Source: Actinomycetes bacterium (GTDB lineage Bacteria; Actinomycetota; Coriobacteriia; Anaerosomatales; JAGXFU01). Taken from it: a stretch of DNA of 64,000 nt. The translations under genes were made by a program, and so were the position numbers. The notes beneath the pieces are model-generated. The model did no database searches. It saw nothing but the letters and a program-made list of their open reading frames with translations, and was not told the origin of the DNA. The stretch spans positions 2,317-66,316 of the forward strand of contig JAGXFU010000010.1 in NCBI GenBank assembly GCA_024637115.1, in the 5' to 3' direction. This document shows, piece by piece, positions 1-16,769 of this stretch (within the stretch, counting starts at the first letter, position 1; every line of letters begins with the position of its first letter).

Positions 1-1188
1 ATGCAGGCTGGATTCGCGGCCGTTGAGGCTGGCTTCTGCCGGGCCAAGAACACAACCAACCTCATGATGAAGAACATGATGGACTTTGTGATGGGTTCGC
101 TTGGGTACTTCGCCGTTGGCTTTGCCTTCATGTACGGAGCCGATGCCGCAGGCATCATCGGTACCGACGGGTGGTTCATGGCAGGCGACTACTACGATGT
201 CACGATGTACCGTGACTTCATGTTCCAGGTCGTGTTCGCGGCCACAGCTGCAACGATCGTCTCCGGTGCGGTCGCCGAGCGTCTCAAGTTCAGCGCATAC
301 CTCGTGTACTCGATCGTTATCACCGCAGTCATCTATCCGATCTACGGTCACTGGGTATGGGGTGGCGGCTGGCTGTCCGCTCTTCCCTTTGGCGCCGGTC
401 ACGTTGACTTCGCCGGTTCCGGCGTTGTCCACGCTGTCGGTGGTTTCGTAGGACTCGCGGGAGCAATGGTGCTCGGACCGCGCTTTGGCAAGTTTGACAA
501 AGACGGTAAGCCTCGGGCCATCCCGGGTCACAACATCGCGCTTGCCACCATCGGCCTGTTCCTGCTGTGGTTTGGCTGGTTCGGCTTTAACCCGGGCTCC
601 ACGTTGTCCGGTACCGACCTCCGCATGGCGGTCATCGCTGTGAACACCAACATGGCTGCTGCAGCTGGCGCCGCAGTCGCGTTGTTGATCACCAAGTTCA
701 AGACAGGTATCTGGGACGTTGGTATGGGCATCAACGGTGCGCTCGCCGGCCTCGTTGGTATCACCGCTCCCTGTGCATTCGTAAGCGGTGTTGACTCGGT
801 CATCATCGGCGCCATCGCAGGTGCGATCGTGATCATCTCCGTCTACACCCTGGAGAACATGGGCATCGACGATCCGGTCGGTGCGGTCTCGGTCCACGGA
901 GTGAACGGCATCTGGGGACTCATTGCAGTCGGTCTGTTCGCCGATGGTACGTACACCGCATGGCCGGTCACCGGTCTCTTCTACGGTGGCGGCGCAGATC
1001 AGCTCATTGCACAGCTCATTGGTGCAGGCGTCGTTATCGCCTGGGCATTCGGCACCGGCTTCATCGTATTCAAGGTGATGGACATGGTCATGGGCATCCG
1101 CGTTTCGCCCGAAGAGGAGATCCAGGGTCTCGATCTCCAGGAGCATGGTTCATCGGCCTACCCGAACTTCCTGATCGTAGAAGAGTAG
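1..1188 (+). CDS. amtB: Ammonium transporter (Amt family), 5'-truncated by the window edge
   Basis: Motifs MQAGFAAVEAG, DFAGSGVVH, WFGWFGFNPGS, DDPVGAVSVHG (twin His); followed by a P-II gene. Confidence 0.96.
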   Translation: MQAGFAAVEAGFCRAKNTTNLMMKNMMDFVMGSLGYFAVGFAFMYGADAAGIIGTDGWFMAGDYYDVTMYRDFMFQVVFAATAATIVSGAVAERLKFSAYLVYSIVITAVIYPIYGHWVWGGGWLSALPFGAGHVDFAGSGVVHAVGGFVGLAGAMVLGPRFGKFDKDGKPRAIPGHNIALATIGLFLLWFGWFGFNPGSTLSGTDLRMAVIAVNTNMAAAAGAAVALLITKFKTGIWDVGMGINGALAGLVGITAPCAFVSGVDSVIIGAIAGAIVIISVYTLENMGIDDPVGAVSVHGVNGIWGLIAVGLFADGTYTAWPVTGLFYGGGADQLIAQLIGAGVVIAWAFGTGFIVFKVMDMVMGIRVSPEEEIQGLDLQEHGSSAYPNFLIVEE

Positions 1189-1216
1189 ATAATCAACCAC
1201 CGAGGAGGTGAAGACC

Positions 1217-1555
1217 GTGAAAAAGATCGAAGCAGTCATCCGCCCGGAAAAGCTCGACGCAGTGAAGGCCGCGCTTGATACCGCCGGATACCCTGGCATG
1301 ATGCTCACCCGCATCGAGGGGCACGGCAAACAGAAGGGCTTGATGCAGCAGTTCCGCGGTCGTTCGTACAAGGTGGAGATGCTGCCCAAGTACAAGATCG
1401 AAGTCATCTGCGCCGATGGTGAGTGCACCAAGCTCGCCGAGGCCATCATCAACGCCGCACGTACAGGCGAGGTTGGCGACGGCAAGATCTTTGTGAGCGA
1501 CATCTCTGACGTCACACGTATTCGCACCGGCGAATCCGGCGACGTGGCTATCTAG
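1217..1555 (+). CDS. glnK: P-II nitrogen regulatory protein (GlnK-like)
   Basis: KKIEAVIRPEKL, GHGKQKG, TGEVGDGKIF, RIRTGE; GGAGG SD upstream of GTG 1217; directly after amt. Confidence 0.93.
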   Translation: MKKIEAVIRPEKLDAVKAALDTAGYPGMMLTRIEGHGKQKGLMQQFRGRSYKVEMLPKYKIEVICADGECTKLAEAIINAARTGEVGDGKIFVSDISDVTRIRTGESGDVAI

Positions 1556-1566
1556 TTTCACACCCC

Positions 1567-1600
1567 GCAGAACGGGGGGTTTGCCGGCCCCCCGTTCTGC
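1567..1600 (+). other. 13-bp intercistronic hairpin without a U-tract (mRNA stability element or weak terminator)
   Basis: GCAGAACGGGGGG (1567-1579) / CCCCCCGTTCTGC (1588-1600). Confidence 0.6.
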
Positions 1601-1652
1601 ACCCCCCATCACACGGCCATCTGCCTGAGATTCGAACACCCTGGAGCTTCCA

Positions 1653-1991
1653 ATGAAGAAGGTCGAAGCCATATTTCGTCCAGAAAAGCTTGAAGGCGTG
1701 CGCGATGCGCTCGACCAGCTTGAGCGAGCCGGCCTCACGGTGATCGAGGTGAAGGGCCACGGCGTTCAGCGCGGCCTGACCCAGCAGTGGCGCGGAGGCG
1801 AGTACCATGTCTCACTCGTACCCAAGGTTATGGTGTTGAGCGTGGTACACGACCACGAGGTGCAGGAAACGATCGAGACGATCACCTCGGTAGCGCGCAC
1901 CGGACTCATGGGTGATGGAAAGATCTTTGTCACTCCCGTAGAACAGGCGATTCGTATTCGCACGGGAGAGACCGGGCCTCAGGCAATCTAA
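1653..1991 (+). CDS. glnB: Second P-II nitrogen regulatory protein
   Basis: KKVEAIFRPEKL, GHGVQRG, WRGGEY T-loop, GDGKIF, RIRTGE. Confidence 0.9.
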   Translation: MKKVEAIFRPEKLEGVRDALDQLERAGLTVIEVKGHGVQRGLTQQWRGGEYHVSLVPKVMVLSVVHDHEVQETIETITSVARTGLMGDGKIFVTPVEQAIRIRTGETGPQAI

Positions 1992-2029
1992 GCACGATCC
2001 GCAGACCGCTCACTGGTCTCGAGAAACAC

Positions 2030-2056
2030 AAAGACCCGCACATGCGCGGGTCTTTT
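2030..2056. terminator. Bidirectional intrinsic terminator
   Basis: AAAGACCCGC/GCGGGTCTTT stem with T-rich tails on both strands. Confidence 0.8.
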
Positions 2057-2081
2057 CATCTACCTGGGAAGTCCCTTGGAC

Positions 2082-2445
2082 AAGAAAAACCGGGATGGCC
2101 TTCGCACCGCCCGAGGATCCCCTGTAAAGGGATATCATTGAGAGCTCTCGGCCAAGTGAGCTGTTCTACCCTCTTGGCCTCACCCTCGCGTTATCCAGAG
2201 GCTTATGCCCGACTCTTCGGTGGCCCTGACTCATCTTCTCGAAACAACCTCTGCGTCTTCACTGTAGACGCACAATCGAACCGACAACTCTTTTCTTCAC
2301 GTACCAACTCATCCTCTTACGGCCAAACCGAAGGTCTTTATCTGCCATCCCGGCTTAATCCGTGATTCTCTAGCACTTAAGCGATCCTCACCTCTCTATG
2401 GCCGGATCACCACTCTCGGAATCGGTTCGGCTCCACCGACACCTA
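2082..2445 (-). ncRNA. Candidate structured non-coding RNA (~360 nt), family not recognised
   Basis: 10-bp long-range stem 2090-2099/2344-2353 ending in a U-run on minus, several internal hairpins, a cUUCGg loop, bounded by two terminators, no credible ORF. Confidence 0.55.
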
Positions 2446-2490
2446 CCTATATATACCCGCGTTTTCGTATTTCTCCCCATCTCAAAACGA

Positions 2491-2517
2491 CGGACGGCCC
2501 CGATATGGGGCCGTCCG
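2491..2517 (-). terminator. Intrinsic terminator of the rhodanese-thioredoxin gene
   Basis: CGGACGGCCCC/GGGGCCGTCCG 11-bp stem followed by TCGTTTT on minus. Confidence 0.8.
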
Positions 2518-2557
2518 ATACAGTTCTATCGACGAGCGGGTCAAAGCACGCGACGAA

Positions 2558-3271
2558 CTACTTGAGCGCGTCGAGCTGCTTGCGCATCGCGTCCTCGGAC
2601 TGCTCGCCCACCAGTTGTCCGGCGGCCGAACCATCGGTATTCACGAACACGAACGTTGGCACGTACTGCGCGCCATACTGCTCCATCAGAGCCTGTCCCT
2701 CGGCATCTTTGTCCACGTCGAACAAGCGGAACTCGACCTTGCCGTCGTACTCACTCTTTAGCCTGTCCACGACAGGCGCCATTGTCTGGCACGAGGGTCA
2801 CCAATCGGTGTAGAACTCGTAGAGTACGGGCGAATCGAGCGCGACTGCCGGCACGGGCGGCGCAACGGCGACAGCCGTACCGCGCTCAACGTCACCATTC
2901 CATGTGACCATACCTGCGTTGAGGTGGTATACCTCAGAGAACCCGAGCTGCTCGAGGGCCTGGACCGCACTCACGGAGCGCGATCCGGTGGCGCAGTAGA
3001 CAGCGACGGGCTGATTCGGATCCCACGCTGCTGCAGCCGTCGTAAACTCGTTGACAGGCACGTTCTCGGCTGTGGGGATATGTCCGGCCTCATACTCGCC
3101 CGAGGTGCGGACATCGATAATCCGAACCCCCTGTGCCACGAGATCCTGCATTTTGGCCGAATCGACGTTTGCGGTGCCTCCCGCGCCTTGAGGCGTGAAC
3201 AGCATCACGCCCAGGCCCACCAGAACCACCGCTCCGATAATCCAAAAGATCAACTTCTGATTCATTACCAC
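2558..3271 (-). CDS. Membrane-anchored rhodanese-thioredoxin fusion, predicted selenoprotein (UGA at 2798-2800 read as Sec)
   Basis: N-terminal TM; rhodanese DVRT..EY..GHIP and VYCATGSRS; then EFYTDW-TGA-PSCQTMAP in frame with the thioredoxin fold of ORF 2558-2782 (cis-Pro YVPTF). Confidence 0.88.
2761..2777 (-). promoter_or_regulatory. Putative bacterial SECIS hairpin
   Basis: GCCTGTC-GTG-GACAGGC perfect 7-bp stem with G-containing loop, starting 20 nt 3' of the in-frame UGA. Confidence 0.6.
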
Positions 3272-3333
3272 TCCTTGCCCTCCCGCATCCGGTGGAAGGT
3301 CCGGCTCTATGCATGCCCTAGGTTGTTCGAGAC

Positions 3334-3352
3334 ATTATACCCTTGGGGGTAT
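3334..3352 (-). promoter_or_regulatory. -10 TATAAT overlapped by a CsoR/CstR-like operator palindrome
   Basis: ATACCC-TTGG-GGGTAT at 3337-3352; TATAAT on minus at 3334-3339, upstream of the rhodanese-Trx gene. Confidence 0.5.
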
Positions 3353-3488
3353 TCATTCCACAACTTCCCGTCCTGGATGGTGCAGGTCGGGGATAATCAG
3401 GTTCATACGCGCCCTGTCCGTCAGAACAGCAAGTACGTTACCAACAATTAGACTGGGGCGTAGACCAACTACGGCCGAAGGGGACTTA

Positions 3489-6400
3489 GTGAGGATGTCG
3501 AGGCATGCACGCGACAGTGAGACCTCTCCGTTCAGGCAGGAATTCCTGAGCGCTGAAAGGCTAGCCGATAGAGCTCGCGAGCTCGCGGGGTCTCAGCCGA
3601 TGGACTTTGGCACCATCAAAGGGTCCACGCCGTTGAGCGCTCTGATCGAAACTGCGGCTACCTCGCTCTCAGAGCACAATGCCGTGCTCGCTCGCGCCGT
3701 GCGCTTGCAGCATCCGATATCGCCGGCCAGCGAGTGGTTGCTCGACAACTACTACCTGATCGAGGAACAGATCCATGCCATACGCGACGATCTGCCAACG
3801 GGATTCGGCCAGGAGCTACCCTTTCTCACCTCTGGTCCGTACACGCGGCATCCGCGAACCTACGAGGCAGTTGTAACACTCCTTGGCCATTCAGACGCAC
3901 GGGTGGATGAGGAGTATCTCCACCGCTTCATCGAGGGATACCAGGATGTCTCACCTCTCACGATCGGTGAGGTCTGGGCGATTCCGATCATGCTGCGCGT
4001 GGCGCTCGTTGAGAACCTGCGCCGTTTGTCCCATCGGGTGGTAGCAGCGCACAGCGCTGGTCGCGTGGCCGATGAATGGGCGGACCGACTGCTCCTTTCG
4101 GCTCAAGACGAGCCTGATGACCTTCACGATCTCATCGACCAGCTTGAGCACAGCCTCCCCGATGACCTGTCCACATTCTACGTGCGGATGTCTCTGCGCC
4201 TGAGCGGCCAGGACGTTGGCGTCGACCCGATCAACCACTGGCTCGATCGAATGCTGGAGGGAATCGAGCTATCCCTCGACACGCTGTCGCTGGAGCAACA
4301 GCAGATGCAGGCGGCGGACCAGGTCTCGATCGCAAACACGATTACCTCGATCCGCTTCCTCGACGCCTACGAGTGGAAGTCCTTCTTTGAGAAGGTCTGC
4401 TTTGTCGAACAGATTCTGCGACAGGACCCCGTCGGAGTCTACGAGCGCATGGACTTCGCGAGTCGAGACAGGTATCGGCATGCAGTCGAAGACCTCGGGC
4501 GGCGTTGTCCTCACTCCGAGATCGAAGTTGCCGAGGCGGCGATCAGCTGGTGCCTCAATGCCCTCGATGAACACGTCACCGACCCGTTACGCGGACATGT
4601 TGGACACTACCTGATCAGCGGGGGCCGACTGAGCCTCGAGCGCAGCATTGACTACAAACCGCATGGACGCGAGCTTCTCTACCGGGGACCGCTGAGTCAC
4701 CACGGCGTCTTCTACTGGGGACTGTTCGGCATAACGACCACGCTTCTCGCCGGAGTGCTTGCGTTCTGGATGGTCGCGGGCAATGCCTCGCCGGCGGCAG
4801 CGCTCCTGTTACTCATCCTCGCAGTGGTCCCGCTCTCCGATCTCGCGCTCAACATCACGAACCGCATATCCGCCTGGGTGTTCCCGCCTCGGATCCTGCC
4901 CAAGCTCGACTACCACCAGCCGATAGCGGAATCACACCGAACGCTCGTGATCGTTCCCGCACTCATGTCCTCCTCGAGTGCGGTACAGCACGTGATCGAC
5001 AACCTCGAAGTCGCCTATCTGGCCAATCGCGATCCCAACATCGCCTTTGGGCTCCTCGGCGACCTTAAAGGGGCGGCGAAGCAACACGTACCTGCCGATG
5101 CAGAGATCGTCGTTGCGGCCACACGCGGCATCGAGATGCTCAACGATCGCTACGAGGCCGAGCACGGACGACGCCCGTTCTGCCTGTTCATTCGCGGGCG
5201 ACGCCATAACGAGATAGAAGATGTGTGGATGGGCTGGGAGCGAAAGCGTGGCGCGCTGAGCGAACTCAACGCGGCGCTGCGTGGGTCGACCGAGACAAGC
5301 TTCACGGAACGCATCGGCGCATCTGAGTTCCTGGAATCCGTCACATTCGTTCTCACGCTCGATGCCGACACACAACTGCCCAGAGACGGTGCCGCCAAGC
5401 TGATCGCAACCATCTCGCACCCCCTCAACCGGGCACAGCTCGGCCACGACGATGAGCGCGTGCGTAAAGGCTACGGACTCGTGCAGCCCCGCGTGTCGAT
5501 GTCGCTACCCGCCTCGACCGAGTCCTTCTTTGCCTGGCTCTACTCCGGCGAGACGGGCGTCGATCCATACGCGGGTGCTGTCTCTGATACGTACCAGGAT
5601 GTCTTTGGCGAGGGCAGCTTCACCGGAAAAGGTATCTACGAAGTCAACATCTTCAATGCGGTGCTCGAGGGTCGTTTCCCCGACAACACCCTGCTCTCGC
5701 ATGACCTCATCGAAGGCAACTTCGCTCGCGTTGCCCTGGCAAGCGACATCGAAGTGTTCGACGACCACCCCGCAAGTTATCTGTCGCATATGGCTCGTCT
5801 GCACCGGTGGGTCCGTGGCGACTGGCAGACCCTGCCCTGGCTTCTTCTGCGCATACCCGCCAAGGGAGGACGTCACTCTCGCAACCCGCTCTCATCGCTG
5901 CATCGATGGAAGATGACGGACAACCTGCGACGAAGCCTCGTGGCGCCCACGCTTCTGCTGCTCATCACGATTGGCTGGCTGCTCGTGCCGGGCCCATCAT
6001 GGGCATGGCCGCTGGCAATGATGCTTGTGGTGTTCTTCCCGGTCTATTTCAGCCTTGCCGACTCCCTTGTGTTCCGCTCGCGGTCGTTCTCGTTCCAGGC
6101 GGCGGCCGGCACGATCTGGCGTGACTTTGGCCGGGACTCGGCTCGCGCGGTACTCTCGCTGACGCTGCTCCCCCATCAGGCATGGCTCATGACCGACGCC
6201 ATCGTTCGCGCGCTCTGGCGCATGAACGTTTCGCACCACAACCTGCTGGAATGGGAGACGGCCGCAGACGCTGATCGCAGGCTCGGCAACTCGCTCGCGG
6301 GCTTCCTTCGCAAGTTGCTGCCCTCATCACTCCTTGCGCTTGGCCTGCTTGCGATCGCCACTGTCGACCATCCCGGCCGCGCCGGAGTCGCTGCCGCTCT

Positions 6401-9400
6401 CGGACTCATCTGGCTCTCTGCTCCTGTGGTCGCCTGGTGGGTGTCGAGAAAGACCGTTCCGGCTCCTTTCGAGCTCACCGATTCCGATGCCCACGAACTG
6501 CGTATCGTTGCGCGTCGAACCTGGCGGTTCTTTGAGACGTTCGTGACCGAGGAAGGACATTACCTCGCTCCTGACAACTTCCAGGAGGATCCCGGGGCCA
6601 CGATTGCGTTCCGTACCTCTCCCACGAACATTGGACTACAACTGCTCTCGGGGCTCACGGCATACGACCTTGGCTACATCACCCTGCGCGGGCTGATGAT
6701 GCGCACCTCGGACACCATGAACACGATGGCTGGCCTTGAGCGCTTTCGCGGTCACTTCTACAACTGGTATGACACCCGCACGCTGCAACCGCTGCCGCCC
6801 AACTACGTCTCCACAGTAGACAGCGGCAATCTGGCGGGGCATCTGCTTGTGCTCCGCATCGGCCTCCTCGAGGCATCTGAGGGACCGCTCCTGGGCGCAC
6901 AGCTTCTGCATGGCCTCGTTGACACGGCCGACCTTGCCATCGACGACCTGCATACGGAGCGCGGAGACCTTCAGCCCGCGCCGATCGCCCATGCGCTGCG
7001 CGAACAACTCGAAGAGATTCGCCGGGACATCGAACTCGAAAATGAACCTGAGGATCTCGGCGAGTGGTATGCGCTGCTGCGTCGCCTCGACACGTTGGTC
7101 GCTGCCGCTACCGCATCCGTTGGCGAACTGGCTGATGGGCAAGAGACCGGCGAATCGCCCTTCCCTGTCACACCTGTTCAGCGGGTCCGCGCCTCAGTGC
7201 GCGCGCTCGAAAAGTTCACCCACGAAGCACACATGATGCTCCGAAACCTCGCCCCCTGGGCTCCGCTCATCACGAATGTTCCCGACGCCGTACTGCAAGA
7301 CGAACGCAGCAAGGACCTCCTGCCTCTCTTTGAATATGTCCCGAGCCTGGTCGGGCTGGCCGAGGGACTGGCCGAATGCCTCTCTACGCTCGACTCGATC
7401 GCCGCCTCACCTGCTGGCAGCTCTCCAGAAGACCAGGAGTCCGCGCGCGAGTGGGCATCCCGGGTGAGCGAGAGCATTCGCCAATCGCGTCCAAACTCGG
7501 TGGAACTCCTCGCCAGACTGCGCCTCACTGCCAACATGGCCCGTGAGATGTGGGAGCACACCGACTTTCGGATGCTCTTTGACTCTCAACGGTTGCTGTT
7601 CTCGATCGGCTACAACACCACCGAGGGACACCTCGACCCGTCGTTTTATGACATGCTCGCATCCGAATGCCGGCTTGCGAGTTTCCTTGCCATCGCAAAA
7701 GGGGACGTGCCGCAGGAGCACTGGTTCCGTCTTGGCAGATCGATCACGCAGACTTCGGGCGGGCGGGCGCTGCTTTCCTGGAGCGCGTCGATGTTCGAGT
7801 ACCTGATGCCGCTGCTCGTGATGAGAACCTGGCCCACAACCCTGCTCGACCAGACGTACCATTCAGTCGTTGAGCGGCAGGTCCAGTACGGACGCGAACG
7901 CAGTGTGCCGTGGGGCGTCTCGGAATCAGCCTTCAACGCCAAGGATTCTGAGCTCACGTACCAATATCAGGCATTCGGTGTACCCGGCCTGGGCTTGAAG
8001 CGAGGCTTGTCCGATGACATCGTCGTTGCTCCGTATGCGAGCGTACTCTCGTTGCCGATCGCGCCTCTCGAGGTACTCGCCAACCTGCGAGTACTTGCAG
8101 CGCAGGGCGTGCGGGGTCGCTACGGGTTCTATGAGGCAGTGGACTACACGCCCGGGCGTATCCCGGCGGGTGAATCGCGTGCCATCGTAAAGGCCTACTT
8201 TGCCCACCACCAGGGTATGAGCCTGCTCGCACTTGGCAACGAGCTCGCCGGACGCACGATGCGTGAGCGCTTCCATCGCGATCCAATGGTGACCACAGCA
8301 GAGCTCCTGCTGCAGGAACGCGTCCCGCACACCGTGCAGCTCGCCCATCCCAATGTTGAAGAAGTCAGGAGCGTGCGCTCGATTCGCGACCTGCCGCCGC
8401 CTGTTACGCGATCCTATCCACTGGCAGACACCCCGGTGCCCGCCACGCACTTCCTCTCCAACGGTGACTACTCCGTCATGATCACCAACGGCGGGGGTGG
8501 CTACAGCAGATGGCGCGGACTCTCTGTCACCCGATACCGGGAAGATGTCACACGCGACTCATGGGGGCAGTTCTTCTATGTGCGTGACGTCGACACCGGC
8601 GCCGTGTGGACCGCCGCCAACAATCCCGTGGTCAACGAGCCGGACGACTACCACGTGACGTTCTCTGCCGAAAAGGCCGAGTTCCACAGGCGGGATGGAG
8701 ACATCGAGACGAACACCGAGATCGCCGTCTCGCCCGAAGACGATGCCGAGGTTCGCCGCCTCACGATCGTCAATCACGGCCGCTCCGCGCGTCACATCGA
8801 AGTGACCTCGTACTTTGAGATCGCGATCGTCGAGCAAAACGCTGATCAGGCTCATAAGTCATTCTCGAATCTCTTCGTTGAGACCGAGGCCCACAGCGCC
8901 ACCAATACCGTGCTCTTCTCGCGTCGGCCCCGCTCTGAGCATGAATCCCGCCCATACGGATTCCATACACTCGGGTGCGAGGACAGAGACAGCTGTGAGT
9001 GGTCTTTCGAGACCGATCGCGTGCAATTCCTGGGGCGGCTCAATCAGTGCGACAACCCTGTCGCCATCAATGCCGGAGGAGAGCTCTCGTGTACGGTCGG
9101 CGCGGTCCTCGACCCGTCCTGCTCGATTCGCAAAGCCGTCCTCGTACCTCCCGGAGGAAGTGCTCGCCTCGTGTTCACCACCGGGGTTGCCGAAACGCGC
9201 GAAGAGGCCCTGCACCTCTCGGAGAAGTACCACGATATGCGCAGCGCGCAGCGCGCGATCGACCTTGGCTGGACGACCGCAAAGATCGAACTACGCGACC
9301 TGGGACTCTCCCCGCAGGAAGCGGTCGTGCTTCAGCGGCTCGCCTCGCGCCTCTTGTTGACCGATCCCCGATCGTTATTGAAAGTGAAGACGCCGGCTGA

Positions 9401-12284
9401 GAACGGGCTACGCATCGACGGACTCTGGTCGATCGGCATCTCCGGGGACAACCCGATCCTGCTCGTACGCGTCGATGAACTCGAACACGCACCCCTCGTG
9501 CGGCAGGCGCTGCTTGCCCACCAGTACTGGCGACACAAGGGCCTTGTTGCGGATATCGTGATTCTCAACACCCGCCCCACGGCCTATTCCGATGAACTCG
9601 ACAACAGACTACGGCTGCTTGTGCGAACCGGCCATGCACTGCAGCTCATGGACAAGCCGGGCGGTATCTTCCTGCGAAGATCCGATCAGATGCACCCCGA
9701 TGTTCTCAACCTGCTCCTGACCGTGGCGCGCGCGACCCTCGAGGGCGGCGGCGGCGGGCTTGAGGTGCAACTCAACCGCAGAGGGAAACGCCCTGATGAT
9801 CCTCCTGCTCTCGTTGTTTCACGCGCACCTGAGCACTTCGAGCATGCACCATTGGTGCGGCCTGATCTCGACTTCGACAACGGCCTTGGCGGATTCGATC
9901 CTGAGACCGGCGACTATGTGATCGTGCTCAAAGAAGGACAAACCACCCCAGCCCCCTGGATAAACGTCATGGCCACACCGGATTTCGGATGCATGGTGTC
10001 CGAGGCGGGCATTGGCTGCACCTGGGCAAAGAACAGTCACGAGAACCGCATCACGACCTGGAACAACGATGCGGTCTCAGACGGCACCGGCGAGGCACTC
10101 TACATTCGCGACGAAGAAACCGGCGAGTTCTGGAGTCCGACACCGCTTCCCGTCTGCGACGCCGAACCGTACGTTGTGCGTCACGGCAAAGGGTTCACCC
10201 GCTTTGAACACGCTTCGCACGGAATCGAGCAGGAGCTCGAGTGGTTCGTCCCAACGGCAGACCCGGTACGCGTGGCCCGTCTGACCCTGCGAAACGTGAG
10301 TGGCCGCGAGCGGCGTCTGAGCGTGACCCACTTCGTCGAGTGGGTGTTGGGCAGTTCGCGCAGTAAGGCACAGCACGTTGTGGTCACCTGGTTCGACGCG
10401 GAAACGGACATGTTGACCGCCCATAACCACTTCAACATGGACTTCCCCGGTCGTTCCGCGTTCATCGCATGCGACCGTGAGCTCCAGTCGTGGACCGCGA
10501 GCCGCACCGAATTCGTGGGCCGCAACCGCCGCCCTAACGACCCCATTGCGATGCATCGCTCTCGCCTCGATGGTCGTTCGGGCCGCTTCCACGACAACTG
10601 CGGCGCCCTCATGACCGAGATCGTACTGCCGGCGGGCGCCAGCGAGAGCGTCACATTCCTCCTCGGTCAGACCGATACGCTCGATGAAGCGCGCTCGGTG
10701 GTCGCGCGCTACCGGGAACCGGGCTGCGTCAACGATGCCCTCGTGGCGGTGCACGAACAGTGGGACGAGATCCTTGGCAGCGTCACGGTCAAGACGCCTG
10801 ATGCGTCGCTCGATCTCATGGTCAACGGCAATCTGCTCTACCAGTCAGTTGCGTGCCGTTTGTGGGGACGCACCGCCGCGTATCAGAGCAGCGGGGCGTA
10901 TGGATTCCGCGATCAGCTCCAAGACGTGCTGTGCCTCATGCTCACCCGACCTGACCTGGTGCGCGCGCAGATCGTGGAGGCCTCACGTCACCAGTTCGAG
11001 GAAGGCGACGTACTCCATTGGTGGCAGCCATTCTCCGGCCGGGGAGTCCGCACCCGCTTTACCGACGACCGTCACTGGCTGCCCTACGTGGTCGCCGAGT
11101 ATGTGAGCGCAACAGGCGATATGAGCGTACTCGACGAGTTGACGGCCTTCATCGACGGACCTGAACTCGCTCCGGGACATGAGGACAACTATCTGCAGCC
11201 TTCGATCTCCGAGAAAGCTGCAACCGTCTACGAGCACTGCGTTGCCGCTCTTGAATCCGCTCGGGGCACCGGCCCCCACGACCTGCCCCTCATGGGCGGG
11301 GGCGACTGGAACGACGGCATGAATCGCGTAGGACTCGGAGGGACGGGAGAGAGCGTGTGGCTCGGCTGGTTCCTCAACGTGGTCCTCACGCGCTTCGCCA
11401 CCGTCTGCGAGCTGCACGGAGAACCGGATCGAGCCGCGGAGTACCGAACCTGGGCGGCCACACTGATCGAGTCGATCGAGCAAGAAGCCTGGGATGGCGA
11501 GTGGTACCGCCGCGCGTACTTTGACGACGGGACTCCCCTAGGAACGAGCTCCGCCGAGGAGTGCCGCATCGGTGCGATCGCACAGGCATGGGCAACGATC
11601 TCCGGCGCCGGAGACCCGAAACGTGCGGAGCATGCGCTCGACTCAGTGGAGGAGAAACTGGTCCGCCGCGAAGACGGCCTCATCCGTCTGCTCACGCCGC
11701 CATTCGATCACATGCCCCACGACCCCGGCTACATCAAAGGATATGTGCCGGGTGTGCGGGAGAACGGCGGACAGTACACTCACGCCGCCATCTGGGTGGT
11801 GCTTGCACATCTGCTCAGGGGCAACGGTGACGAAGCGGCCGGCCTGTTCCGGCTCATAAACCCGGTCAACCACGGCACTACCCCGCAGGAGGTCGCGCGC
11901 TACAAAGTCGAGCCGTACGTTGTTGCAGCGGACGTGTATGCAGCAGATCCTCATATCGGGCGCGGTGGATGGACCTGGTACACGGGTTCGGCCGGATGGT
12001 TCTATCGCGTGGTCGTGCAGTACCAACTCGGGCTCTGGACCGAGGCAACCGCTGAGGGACGAGCGCTCAGGATCGATCCGTGCATTCCGAAGTCATGGCC
12101 TCGATTCGATATGGAATACCGCTTCGGCGACACGCTCTATCGAATCGCCGTCGAGAACCCCCGTGGAGTCAATCGGGGCGTTGAGCGCGTTACCGTCGAC
12201 GGCACGATCGTCCCCGATGGCCGAATCCCCCTCGATCCCGGCGGAGGGGTACGTGAGGTTCGCGTGACGCTGCTCGGCGGATAG
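3489..12284 (+). CDS. ndvB: Cyclic beta-1,2-glucan synthase (Cgs/NdvB/ChvB-like; GT84 + cyclising domain + GH94 phosphorylase), ~2930 aa
   Basis: EWLLDNYY, GWERKRG, TLDADT, SHDLIEG, RWVRGDWQ, APDNFQE, SWSASMFEYLMP, FRDQLQD, GDWNDG, ENGGQYTHAA, WTWYTGSAGW; start likely GTG 3489 or ATG 3495. Confidence 0.93.
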   Translation: MRMSRHARDSETSPFRQEFLSAERLADRARELAGSQPMDFGTIKGSTPLSALIETAATSLSEHNAVLARAVRLQHPISPASEWLLDNYYLIEEQIHAIRDDLPTGFGQELPFLTSGPYTRHPRTYEAVVTLLGHSDARVDEEYLHRFIEGYQDVSPLTIGEVWAIPIMLRVALVENLRRLSHRVVAAHSAGRVADEWADRLLLSAQDEPDDLHDLIDQLEHSLPDDLSTFYVRMSLRLSGQDVGVDPINHWLDRMLEGIELSLDTLSLEQQQMQAADQVSIANTITSIRFLDAYEWKSFFEKVCFVEQILRQDPVGVYERMDFASRDRYRHAVEDLGRRCPHSEIEVAEAAISWCLNALDEHVTDPLRGHVGHYLISGGRLSLERSIDYKPHGRELLYRGPLSHHGVFYWGLFGITTTLLAGVLAFWMVAGNASPAAALLLLILAVVPLSDLALNITNRISAWVFPPRILPKLDYHQPIAESHRTLVIVPALMSSSSAVQHVIDNLEVAYLANRDPNIAFGLLGDLKGAAKQHVPADAEIVVAATRGIEMLNDRYEAEHGRRPFCLFIRGRRHNEIEDVWMGWERKRGALSELNAALRGSTETSFTERIGASEFLESVTFVLTLDADTQLPRDGAAKLIATISHPLNRAQLGHDDERVRKGYGLVQPRVSMSLPASTESFFAWLYSGETGVDPYAGAVSDTYQDVFGEGSFTGKGIYEVNIFNAVLEGRFPDNTLLSHDLIEGNFARVALASDIEVFDDHPASYLSHMARLHRWVRGDWQTLPWLLLRIPAKGGRHSRNPLSSLHRWKMTDNLRRSLVAPTLLLLITIGWLLVPGPSWAWPLAMMLVVFFPVYFSLADSLVFRSRSFSFQAAAGTIWRDFGRDSARAVLSLTLLPHQAWLMTDAIVRALWRMNVSHHNLLEWETAADADRRLGNSLAGFLRKLLPSSLLALGLLAIATVDHPGRAGVAAALGLIWLSAPVVAWWVSRKTVPAPFELTDSDAHELRIVARRTWRFFETFVTEEGHYLAPDNFQEDPGATIAFRTSPTNIGLQLLSGLTAYDLGYITLRGLMMRTSDTMNTMAGLERFRGHFYNWYDTRTLQPLPPNYVSTVDSGNLAGHLLVLRIGLLEASEGPLLGAQLLHGLVDTADLAIDDLHTERGDLQPAPIAHALREQLEEIRRDIELENEPEDLGEWYALLRRLDTLVAAATASVGELADGQETGESPFPVTPVQRVRASVRALEKFTHEAHMMLRNLAPWAPLITNVPDAVLQDERSKDLLPLFEYVPSLVGLAEGLAECLSTLDSIAASPAGSSPEDQESAREWASRVSESIRQSRPNSVELLARLRLTANMAREMWEHTDFRMLFDSQRLLFSIGYNTTEGHLDPSFYDMLASECRLASFLAIAKGDVPQEHWFRLGRSITQTSGGRALLSWSASMFEYLMPLLVMRTWPTTLLDQTYHSVVERQVQYGRERSVPWGVSESAFNAKDSELTYQYQAFGVPGLGLKRGLSDDIVVAPYASVLSLPIAPLEVLANLRVLAAQGVRGRYGFYEAVDYTPGRIPAGESRAIVKAYFAHHQGMSLLALGNELAGRTMRERFHRDPMVTTAELLLQERVPHTVQLAHPNVEEVRSVRSIRDLPPPVTRSYPLADTPVPATHFLSNGDYSVMITNGGGGYSRWRGLSVTRYREDVTRDSWGQFFYVRDVDTGAVWTAANNPVVNEPDDYHVTFSAEKAEFHRRDGDIETNTEIAVSPEDDAEVRRLTIVNHGRSARHIEVTSYFEIAIVEQNADQAHKSFSNLFVETEAHSATNTVLFSRRPRSEHESRPYGFHTLGCEDRDSCEWSFETDRVQFLGRLNQCDNPVAINAGGELSCTVGAVLDPSCSIRKAVLVPPGGSARLVFTTGVAETREEALHLSEKYHDMRSAQRAIDLGWTTAKIELRDLGLSPQEAVVLQRLASRLLLTDPRSLLKVKTPAENGLRIDGLWSIGISGDNPILLVRVDELEHAPLVRQALLAHQYWRHKGLVADIVILNTRPTAYSDELDNRLRLLVRTGHALQLMDKPGGIFLRRSDQMHPDVLNLLLTVARATLEGGGGGLEVQLNRRGKRPDDPPALVVSRAPEHFEHAPLVRPDLDFDNGLGGFDPETGDYVIVLKEGQTTPAPWINVMATPDFGCMVSEAGIGCTWAKNSHENRITTWNNDAVSDGTGEALYIRDEETGEFWSPTPLPVCDAEPYVVRHGKGFTRFEHASHGIEQELEWFVPTADPVRVARLTLRNVSGRERRLSVTHFVEWVLGSSRSKAQHVVVTWFDAETDMLTAHNHFNMDFPGRSAFIACDRELQSWTASRTEFVGRNRRPNDPIAMHRSRLDGRSGRFHDNCGALMTEIVLPAGASESVTFLLGQTDTLDEARSVVARYREPGCVNDALVAVHEQWDEILGSVTVKTPDASLDLMVNGNLLYQSVACRLWGRTAAYQSSGAYGFRDQLQDVLCLMLTRPDLVRAQIVEASRHQFEEGDVLHWWQPFSGRGVRTRFTDDRHWLPYVVAEYVSATGDMSVLDELTAFIDGPELAPGHEDNYLQPSISEKAATVYEHCVAALESARGTGPHDLPLMGGGDWNDGMNRVGLGGTGESVWLGWFLNVVLTRFATVCELHGEPDRAAEYRTWAATLIESIEQEAWDGEWYRRAYFDDGTPLGTSSAEECRIGAIAQAWATISGAGDPKRAEHALDSVEEKLVRREDGLIRLLTPPFDHMPHDPGYIKGYVPGVRENGGQYTHAAIWVVLAHLLRGNGDEAAGLFRLINPVNHGTTPQEVARYKVEPYVVAADVYAADPHIGRGGWTWYTGSAGWFYRVVVQYQLGLWTEATAEGRALRIDPCIPKSWPRFDMEYRFGDTLYRIAVENPRGVNRGVERVTVDGTIVPDGRIPLDPGGGVREVRVTLLGG

Positions 12285-16692: not shown

Positions 16693-16769
16693 TGGTGGGC
16701 CCGATTGGATTCGAACCAATGACCTCACGGTTATCAGCCGTGCGCTCTAACCAACTGAGCTACGGGCCC
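16693..16769 (-). tRNA. tRNA-Ile (GAU)
   Basis: GGGCCCGTAGCTCAGTTGGTTAGAGC..CT-GAT-AA..GGTTCGAATCC..GGGCCCACCA, encoded CCA. Confidence 0.97.

Follow-up and report, generated by a model that had tools for sequence, protein, structure and literature searches.

A membrane-anchored rhodanese-thioredoxin fusion with a predicted selenocysteine in its thioredoxin motif, conserved across an order of Coriobacteriia

Does an in-frame UGA codon that divides a thioredoxin motif end one protein, or does it specify selenocysteine (Sec) in a longer one, and what would the longer protein do? This question is raised by a minus-strand locus at positions 2558 to 3271 of a 64,000-nucleotide stretch of DNA (the window) from contig JAGXFU010000010.1 of the Actinomycetes bacterium assembly GCA_024637115.1. 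The window lies on contig C15 of this 2.3-Mb assembly, which is 92% complete (genome G000). Based on sequence comparisons, we conclude that the UGA is almost certainly read as selenocysteine and that the gene encodes a genuine selenoprotein in which a rhodanese domain is joined to a Sec-containing thioredoxin domain. The likeliest role of this protein, we infer, is the reduction of rhodanese-bound sulfane sulfur or of disulfides at the cell surface.

Two minus-strand open reading frames (ORFs), 2798 to 3271 and 2558 to 2782, share one frame, and their sole interruption is a TGA at 2800 to 2798 that occupies the first position of a thioredoxin W-x-P-S-C motif. The read-through translation is ...PVLYEFYTDW-U-PSCQTMAPVVDRL... 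(in a longer piece past the TGA, ...PVLYEFYTDW-U-PSCQTMAPVVDRLKSEY...). The start codon is likely the ATG at 3265 rather than the GTG at 3271, because a Shine-Dalgarno-like AAGGAG (3271 to 3276, minus strand, by direct reading of the sequence) lies 5 nt 5' of this ATG and homologues begin at the equivalent Met. With this start, the selenoprotein coding sequence (2558 to 3265, minus strand) has 235 codons, including Sec156, and ends with a TAG stop at 2560 to 2558. Frame and homologue alignment place the UGA (2798 to 2800, minus strand) at the attacking position of W-U-P-S-C, and the resolving Cys159 of the U-x-x-C pair (TGC, 2789 to 2791, minus strand) is an invariant alignment column.

The read-through protein matches Pfam Rhodanese (PF00581) at residues 43 to 125 (2e-19, 70.3 bits, cut-off 22.2) and Pfam Thioredoxin (PF00085) at residues 146 to 234 (4e-16, 59.3 bits, cut-off 23.5). 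Counted from the ATG, these domains are residues 41 to 123 (2897 to 3145, minus strand) and residues 144 to 232 (2570 to 2836, minus strand), and the thioredoxin domain therefore spans the TGA. Thioredoxins in the PDB match profile positions ~138 to 232. In addition to scoring above the Pfam gathering cut-off, the thioredoxin domain has the W-U-P-S-C motif and an invariant P-T-F column (P203, the cis-Pro). In rhodaneses of the sulfurtransferase type, the catalytic Cys stands in a six-residue loop that ends in Arg. The rhodanese domain of the window protein, also above its cut-off, has the loop C91-A-T-G-S-R96 (Cys91 codon TGC, 2993 to 2995, minus strand, in C-A-T-G-S-R-S, as seen in sequence and alignment). 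The original prediction for this locus, which was made from the letters of the window and its ORFs, had joined the two ORFs in one frame through a UGA at the first Cys of a WCxxC motif and had described the product as a membrane-anchored Cys rhodanese fused to a U-P-S-C thioredoxin of ~237 amino acids. The join is borne out by the shared frame and by the Pfam thioredoxin match across the TGA, and both domains are found together with a hydrophobic anchor. The fusion stands, and the length is corrected to 235 codons by the replacement of GTG 3271 with ATG 3265.

Bacterial selenocysteine insertion sequence (bSECIS) elements are stem-loops shortly 3' of the UGA with G or U in the apical loop. In the window, a hairpin, GCCTGTC-GTG-GACAGGC (2777 to 2761; GCCUGUC-GUG-GACAGGC as RNA), begins 20 nt after the A of the TGA, and it has the stem-loop form of a bSECIS, with a loop that is GGUCG in the family or GUG in the window. 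The original prediction had pointed to this perfect 7-bp hairpin with a G-containing loop, and it now has the support of covariation as well. When the 63-nt stretch is folded as a single sequence, z = -2.2, and 1/200 shuffles is as stable. Among relatives, 41 distinct 63-nt stretches from the UGA onward form a gap-free alignment in which a 6-bp helix (columns 24 to 29 with 35 to 40) is paired in 246/246 cells. Two of its pairs show compensatory changes: pair 27-37 occurs as U-A (27 sequences), C-G (13), or G-C (1), and pair 28-36 as G-C (35), C-G (5), or A-U (1). The covariation score is reached by 0/500 shuffles, only 21 to 52% of cells pair when the 3' partner is slid by 1 to 3 columns, and RNAalifold independently predicts the same helix. 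The family consensus is GCCUGU-GGUCG-ACAGGC, with the loop GGUCG in most sequences and with G31 and U32 invariant; the window version has a seventh pair and a GUG loop. The presence of both the TGA column and the hairpin in all 41 distinct homologous sequences is more than chance would give.

The hairpin lies within the codons of a conserved peptide, P-V-V-D-R-L. In the Pro codon, the third base changes together with the base that opens the Arg/Gly codon (CCU/AGG, CCC/GGG, and CCG/CGG), and Val/Leu/Ile changes together with Asp/Glu. The CCG/CGG change, found at locus L061, is synonymous on both sides and is therefore an RNA-level signal. Protein constraint alone does not explain the covariation pattern. 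An Rfam scan of the whole window found no SECIS family, and its only match is a tRNA at 16696 to 16769.

The UGA is conserved across the order to which the genome belongs (probably Anaerosomatales, OPB41). Of 61 genomes sampled (this one plus 60 relatives that represent 25 families of the order), 48 give a match of ≥200 residues with 41 to 100% identity and exactly one in-frame TGA, and three of these 48 carry two copies of the gene. Two long stop-free matches, in G030 (26% identity) and at G007:C21 (35%), are distant, different proteins. In a wider sample of the same order, 73/93 genomes carry a full-length match with exactly one TGA, and four more have the thioredoxin part only, again with the TGA. 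No genome among 108 from other orders of the class gives a match at E ≤ 1e-30. In all 20 loci fetched from relatives, the TGA falls at [WST]-U-P-x-C, and 4 of these 20 genes terminate with a TGA stop, so TGA is not generally reassigned in this lineage. In a named species-representative collection, 37/37 full-length loci have TGA at the same column (36 directly; in L074 an N in the linker shifts the frame, and the column was resolved separately). All 37 come from metagenome-assembled genomes, with titles that are mostly Coriobacteriia, Actinomycetota, or Actinobacteria; one is titled Anaerosomatales and three Eubacteriales. Several homologues, for example, those reading ...EVKPV and ...EIEPV, have no ATG after the TGA. 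Two gammaproteobacterial matches (L076 and L077, ~30% identity) were rejected as homologous fusions, since they are 140-amino-acid anchor-plus-rhodanese proteins with an acidic or neutral N terminus. These two adjoin an ArsR-like gene and a SecB-like gene, the latter judged from its sequence.

Protein databases contain mostly truncated forms of this protein. Our search returned 77 matches, and among the best 70, 68 are rhodanese-only proteins of 151 to 182 residues that end at the TGA. The few that are named are called "rhodanese-like domain-containing protein," "rhodanese-related sulfurtransferase," "phage shock protein E," or "hypothetical protein." The search also found P0003, a full-length fusion of 238 amino acids with 62% identity and a W-C-P-S-C motif, and P0068, a Cys form that has the anchor and the thioredoxin. 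A profile search of 1.84 billion representatives gave, among its best 150, 18 single-stretch matches of 228 to 265 amino acids, each made up of a leader followed by rhodanese and Cys-x-x-Cys thioredoxin domains; the sole named member found among the Cys forms is "thioredoxin [Bacteroidota bacterium]." In the 19 Cys forms (P0003 and these 18), the rhodanese Cys, the loop Arg, both thioredoxin Cys residues, and the cis-Pro are invariant. The UGA thus aligns with Cys in homologues, with conservation on both flanks, as in other Sec/Cys pairs. In a maximum-likelihood tree, P0003 is nested among Sec forms beside L023 (support 99/76). This tree is unrootable, and the Bacteroidota-like Cys forms are on a long branch (1.73) whose placement was flagged by the tool; therefore, we make no claim as to whether Sec or Cys is ancestral.

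The genome encodes the machinery for Sec insertion. There are two tRNA-Sec genes (Rfam 73.4 and 67.6 bits, cut-off 47), both with anticodon TCA by ARAGORN, as well as selA (607.9 bits, cut-off 267.9), selB (370.7 bits, cut-off 242), and selD (368.6 bits, cut-off 125), which itself contains one in-frame TGA. These genes form one cluster on contig C1, which is not the contig of the window. The tRNA-Sec genes (C1:89187-89279 and C1:91494-91586) differ at 3/97 positions and flank a 642-codon gene (C1:89459-91387, plus strand) with a product that starts with a CxxCH heme-binding motif, and the pair is followed by selB, selA, a 120-codon ORF, and selD. In selD (C1:95476-96390), the TGA is read in ...SSKAG-U-AAKWGP... 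and is followed by a hairpin, GGGGUCC-GGC-GGACCUC; therefore, SelD is itself a selenoprotein here.

Based on these results, other explanations of the UGA can be weighed. It is highly improbable that the UGA is a true stop, which would leave a 155-residue membrane rhodanese beside a thioredoxin fragment that is either a gene of its own or dead (two genes or a pseudogene), or that it is an assembly error. Database annotation agrees with a stop, as the rhodanese-only matches described above show, but the thioredoxin domain spans the TGA, protein sequence is conserved in frame on both sides of it in 73 genomes, several homologues lack a later ATG, and the hairpin covaries. Assembly error is excluded by the same TGA in 37/37 independent assemblies. 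Organism-wide reassignment of UGA to Trp or Gly (code 4 or 25) is scarcely conceivable. It would account for the open reading frame itself and for nothing further, while 4/20 orthologues end in TGA, each homologue has exactly one in-frame TGA and always at the redox-active Cys column, the Sec machinery is complete, and homologues have Cys at this position rather than Trp or Gly. We rejected pseudogene, assembly error, two genes, and reassigned code alike on the evidence of conservation, covariation, and Sec machinery. This also settles the doubts that the original prediction had raised about itself. The same TGA column in 73 genomes of the order and in 37/37 independent assemblies answers that of an assembly error; selA, selB, selD, and two tRNA-Sec genes answer that of a genome without Sec machinery; and the thioredoxin domain that spans the TGA, the homologues without a later ATG, and the Cys forms that are single proteins of 228 to 265 amino acids answer that of separately encoded homologues. 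Its suggestion that gene callers would split the gene is confirmed by the 68 truncations among the best 70 database matches, and homologues of both kinds that it envisaged, with Cys and with UGA in the same fusion, were found.

The Sec protein would be exposed outside the cytoplasmic membrane. The read-through protein has a single transmembrane helix, an N-terminal hydrophobic anchor at residues 5 to 23 (LIFWIIGAVVLVGLGVMLF; 3197 to 3253, minus strand; mean Kyte-Doolittle 2.77) that is preceded by a basic N terminus, and a linker of ~20 Ala- and Pro-rich residues separates the rhodanese and thioredoxin domains. By the positive-inside rule, a basic flank stays cytoplasmic. In 19/19 aligned homologues, the N-terminal flank is net positive; counting Lys, Arg, and the N-terminal amine, it carries 2 to 9 positive charges in 18 homologues and 1 in L036, and in the 15 residues after the hydrophobic stretch, acidic residues equal or outnumber basic ones in 18/19. 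The anchor is thus probably N-in/C-out, with both domains outside the cytoplasmic membrane. A C-out orientation is also favored because Cys forms bear signal or lipoprotein leaders, because a DsbD_TM/CcdA gene is directly downstream at two paralogue loci (L067 and L071), and because the genome has three CcdA-like genes. Locus L023 (1501 to 2277, minus strand, genome G040) has an N-terminal extension of K-A-N-T-like repeats (MKNKNTKANTKANAKANTKANTKANTK) before the anchor helix. No solved structure has both domains in one chain; the PDB matches are single domains or multirhodanese proteins.

Six of the 37 loci (L067 to L072) form a paralogue clade with the motif S-[ST]-U-P-[TV]-C (clade support 100/99), and the downstream CcdA gene is present in 2/6 of them. 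The genome of the window also has a second, paralogous Sec-thioredoxin, likewise unannotated (C9:19967-20248, minus strand). It reads S-D-U-P-V-C at the motif and has a leader like that of a lipoprotein (...AMSGCAS...), and its hairpin, GCCUGU-GGUCA-ACAGGC, has the same offset from the UGA as that of the window gene. On contig C1, a candidate TlpA/ResA-like selenoprotein with F-A-V-W-U-P-T-C (L121:2136-2660, minus strand) is just upstream of a CcdA-like gene (C1:125728-126342), apparently in one operon with it. This TlpA-like candidate is less certain because it has no clear hairpin (single-sequence fold z = -0.21). At L072 and at L119 to L120, CcdA/DsbD_2 genes and a paralogue selenoprotein adjoin cupredoxin-like, HMA, cytochrome c, and P-type ATPase genes, an arrangement that hints at a link of copper or other metals to extracytoplasmic thiol redox genes in this order.

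The selenoprotein gene is apparently monocistronic with its own terminator: ~40 nt past the stop there is an intrinsic-terminator-like hairpin with an 11-bp stem, 10 G-C pairs, and then TCGTTTTGAG (2491 to 2517, minus strand). A consensus scan of 1900 to 3700 found no sigma-70-like promoter. Two further terminator-like minus-strand hairpins are at 2055 to 2030 and 2272 to 2252, and the ~500-base interval from the PII genes to the terminator of the selenoprotein gene (2000 to 2490) has no convincing ORF or Rfam match. Positions 1 to 1991 (plus strand) encode Amt and then tandem PII (GlnB/GlnK-like) proteins (1208 to 1555 and 1653 to 1991), named from their translations. The divergent neighbor is a 2991-codon ORF (3309 to 12284, plus strand) with GH94 supersandwich, GH94 catalytic, and glucoamylase-like domains, and it therefore resembles a cyclic-beta-1,2-glucan synthase. 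Such an ORF is unusual for a Gram-positive lineage, and its real start is probably near 3495. The divergent pairing is kept in 30/37 loci and is missing only from L075 and the six loci of the paralogue clade. At least 13/37 loci likewise have an Amt gene downstream of the selenoprotein, and at least 16/37 a PII gene, indicating that local gene order is generally conserved in the order. In view of this general synteny, the GH94 pairing is not taken as functional evidence.

We propose the following mechanism. SelB and Sec-tRNA(Sec) would decode the UGA, directed by the hairpin in the coding sequence 20 nt downstream, and both domains of the product would be placed outside the cytoplasmic membrane. 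There, the rhodanese Cys91 would take sulfane sulfur from thiosulfate, polysulfide, or persulfides (possibly also selenium) as a persulfide, Sec156 would attack the Cys91 persulfide and release sulfide, and the resulting Se-S bond between Sec156 and Cys159 would be reduced by electrons from a CcdA/DsbD-type transmembrane transporter. A precedent for cooperation between the two activities is GlpE, which works with a separate thioredoxin. It is known also from the interaction of plant sulfurtransferases with thioredoxin, again as separate proteins, as described in the available part of PMC4618214. Rhodanese catalysis is favored by the strict conservation of the Cys and Arg residues, which are retained in 18/19 rows of alignment A1 (18 Sec forms and the Cys form P0003), L027 being the exception. 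On balance we lean toward the whole combination of selenoprotein, outward orientation, and persulfide chemistry, while persulfide reduction specifically is put forward only tentatively. The single-chain module that the original prediction had suggested, which would transfer and reduce persulfides, polysulfides, or selenium at the cell surface, is likewise possible and fits the sequence observations.

Several observations weigh against this interpretation. No CcdA gene is found beside the window's own selenoprotein gene, and the orientation is predicted from charge counting only. In L027 (622 to 1326, minus strand, genome G006), Tyr replaces the rhodanese active-site Cys (VAVYYATGSRS) and the Sec is kept, so that rhodanese chemistry may be dispensable there or the base call may be wrong. 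The persulfide model does not explain the GH94 pairing, and the protein scores 56.4 bits against the TrxA equivalog TIGR01068, which has a cut-off of 96.8. In addition, a role specific to sulfur respiration is unlikely because the gene is in most genomes of the order, while its cultured members differ: according to the available part of PMC9686372, two cultured Anaerosomatales (whose own genomes were not identified among those searched) are Gram-positive anaerobes, of which one reduces sulfur and thiosulfate and the other only Fe(III).

Some of these observations would suit a genuine selenoprotein of a different function. Its thioredoxin could be a general extracytoplasmic thiol-disulfide reductase that acts in cytochrome c maturation or in repair of oxidized Cys residues of exported proteins, in the manner of ResA or DsbG, with the rhodanese as an accessory or as a client whose single Cys the Sec-thioredoxin keeps reduced, rather than as a sulfur carrier. 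We consider this somewhat unlikely. It is consistent with the loss of the rhodanese Cys from L027, with the existence of membrane-anchored thioredoxin-only relatives (P0068 and the C9 lipoprotein), with the four genomes that have only the thioredoxin part and its TGA, with CcdA directly downstream at L067 and L071, and with the multiheme cytochromes of the order (reported in the available part of PMC9686372). However, conservation of the rhodanese Cys and of the Arg in its loop, in 18/19 rows of A1 and in 19/19 Cys forms, across distant phyla, argues for a catalytic role, and the separate TlpA-like candidate beside ccdA on C1 suits the ResA role better. It is quite improbable that the selenoprotein acts at the surface on selenium or on some other thiophilic element, metal or metalloid (Se, Te, Cu, or Hg), for example, by reducing selenite and holding it as perselenide for uptake. 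A rhodanese is able to carry selenium, and L072 and the CcdA loci of the genome adjoin cupredoxin, HMA, and P-type ATPase genes, both of which count in favor of such a role, as does thioredoxin-dependent reduction of selenite as a first step of selenoprotein synthesis. The last is described in the available part of PMC8538045. In contrast, no transporter or sel gene adjoins the window gene, the sel cluster is on another contig, and, in the available part of PMC9686372, the cultured Anaerosomatales do not grow by selenate or selenite reduction. Finally, the boldest extension of the persulfide model seems unlikely to us. It would make the protein an order-wide, almost obligately Sec-dependent, single-chain persulfide/polysulfide reductase on the outer face of the membrane, fed by CcdA and capturing sulfane sulfur or selenium, with the divergent GH94 pairing reflecting a real link of envelope glucan synthesis to extracytoplasmic sulfur redox.

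UxxC thioredoxin-fold selenoproteins are the commonest kind, and a further one is not a new principle. The interest of this protein is mainly in annotation and in a natural rhodanese-thioredoxin fusion with Sec. Database entries that end at the Sec codon, together with the lack of an NCBIfam model, mean that the selenoproteome of a widespread subsurface lineage is undercounted, and a curated model would correct on the order of a hundred records. A one-chain fusion of two cooperating activities is also a natural system in which to ask what Sec adds to extracytoplasmic persulfide or disulfide reduction. In addition, a SECIS that lies in a conserved coding stretch and still undergoes compensatory changes, in some cases with an amino acid replacement, shows the same bases constrained at both the RNA and the protein level.

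How does the window protein compare with known systems? An NCBIfam search gave no match above a curated cut-off, and our literature search, which covered published texts apart from supplementary lists, found no such Sec fusion but only separate proteins described as a "rhodanese-thioredoxin system." A search of the deep-Sep paper by term turned up no mention of such a fusion, and a rhodanese-thioredoxin fusion with Sec in the thioredoxin is not listed in the available part of a 2026 review of prokaryotic selenoproteins (PMC13188914). The exported rhodanese-thioredoxin fusions of the Cys type are similar in having a leader, a rhodanese domain with Cys and loop Arg, a thioredoxin domain with W-C-x-x-C and cis-Pro, and a length of 228 to 265 amino acids. 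They differ in having Cys instead of Sec, in their 27 to 38% identity to the closest Cys form, P0003, and in the lipoprotein leaders that many of them carry; the literature search found no experimental study of them.

The Sec-containing thioredoxin Trx is small and soluble and has a single domain. The available part of the selenoprotein table of PMC13188914, which cites Kim et al. 2015, gives Trx (PF00085, UxxC) as experimentally verified. The window protein has the same PF00085 domain with Sec at the same first position of UxxC, but it also carries a membrane anchor and a rhodanese domain on the N-terminal side, and its predicted orientation is outward, while the table entry, as available, lists PF00085 only. 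TsoB, described in the same part of that table (with reference to Haft and Tolstoy 2025) as a rhodanese/DsbD fusion-like selenoprotein (NF045694), likewise combines a rhodanese with a thioredoxin-like module, and the C-terminal part of its model matches window residues 143 to 217. However, TsoB has two Sec residues in UxxxxU, whereas the window protein has one, in the thioredoxin, and a Cys in the rhodanese. The window protein also lacks the DsbD membrane core (a separate CcdA is found only at paralogue loci L067 and L071) and scores 45.6 bits against a cut-off of 805. Five rhodanese selenoprotein forms (PF00581 or NF041203) in the available part of PMC13188914 share with it a rhodanese domain in a selenoprotein, but theirs have Sec in that domain, where the window protein has Cys. 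Its score against NF041203 is 33.3 bits (cut-off 115), the CxU motif is absent, and its rhodanese loop has the Cys and no Sec.

The same two activities are found together as pairs of separate proteins in E. coli (GlpE with thioredoxin and PspE with DsbC/DsbD), and Bacillus ResA with CcdA is likewise a pair of separate proteins. The GlpE, PspE, ResA, and plant sulfurtransferase systems resemble the window protein in these activities, and the periplasmic ones also have a transmembrane electron supply. In contrast to these separate Cys proteins, the window protein joins both activities in one chain, with Sec as the predicted attacking residue. By the convention that classes selenoproteins by domain and motif (as given in the available part of PMC9312934), it falls under Trx/UxxC. 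No curated model or published description of it having been found, the window protein is, as far as its sequence can be read, a new fused and anchored form of the Trx/UxxC selenoprotein family.

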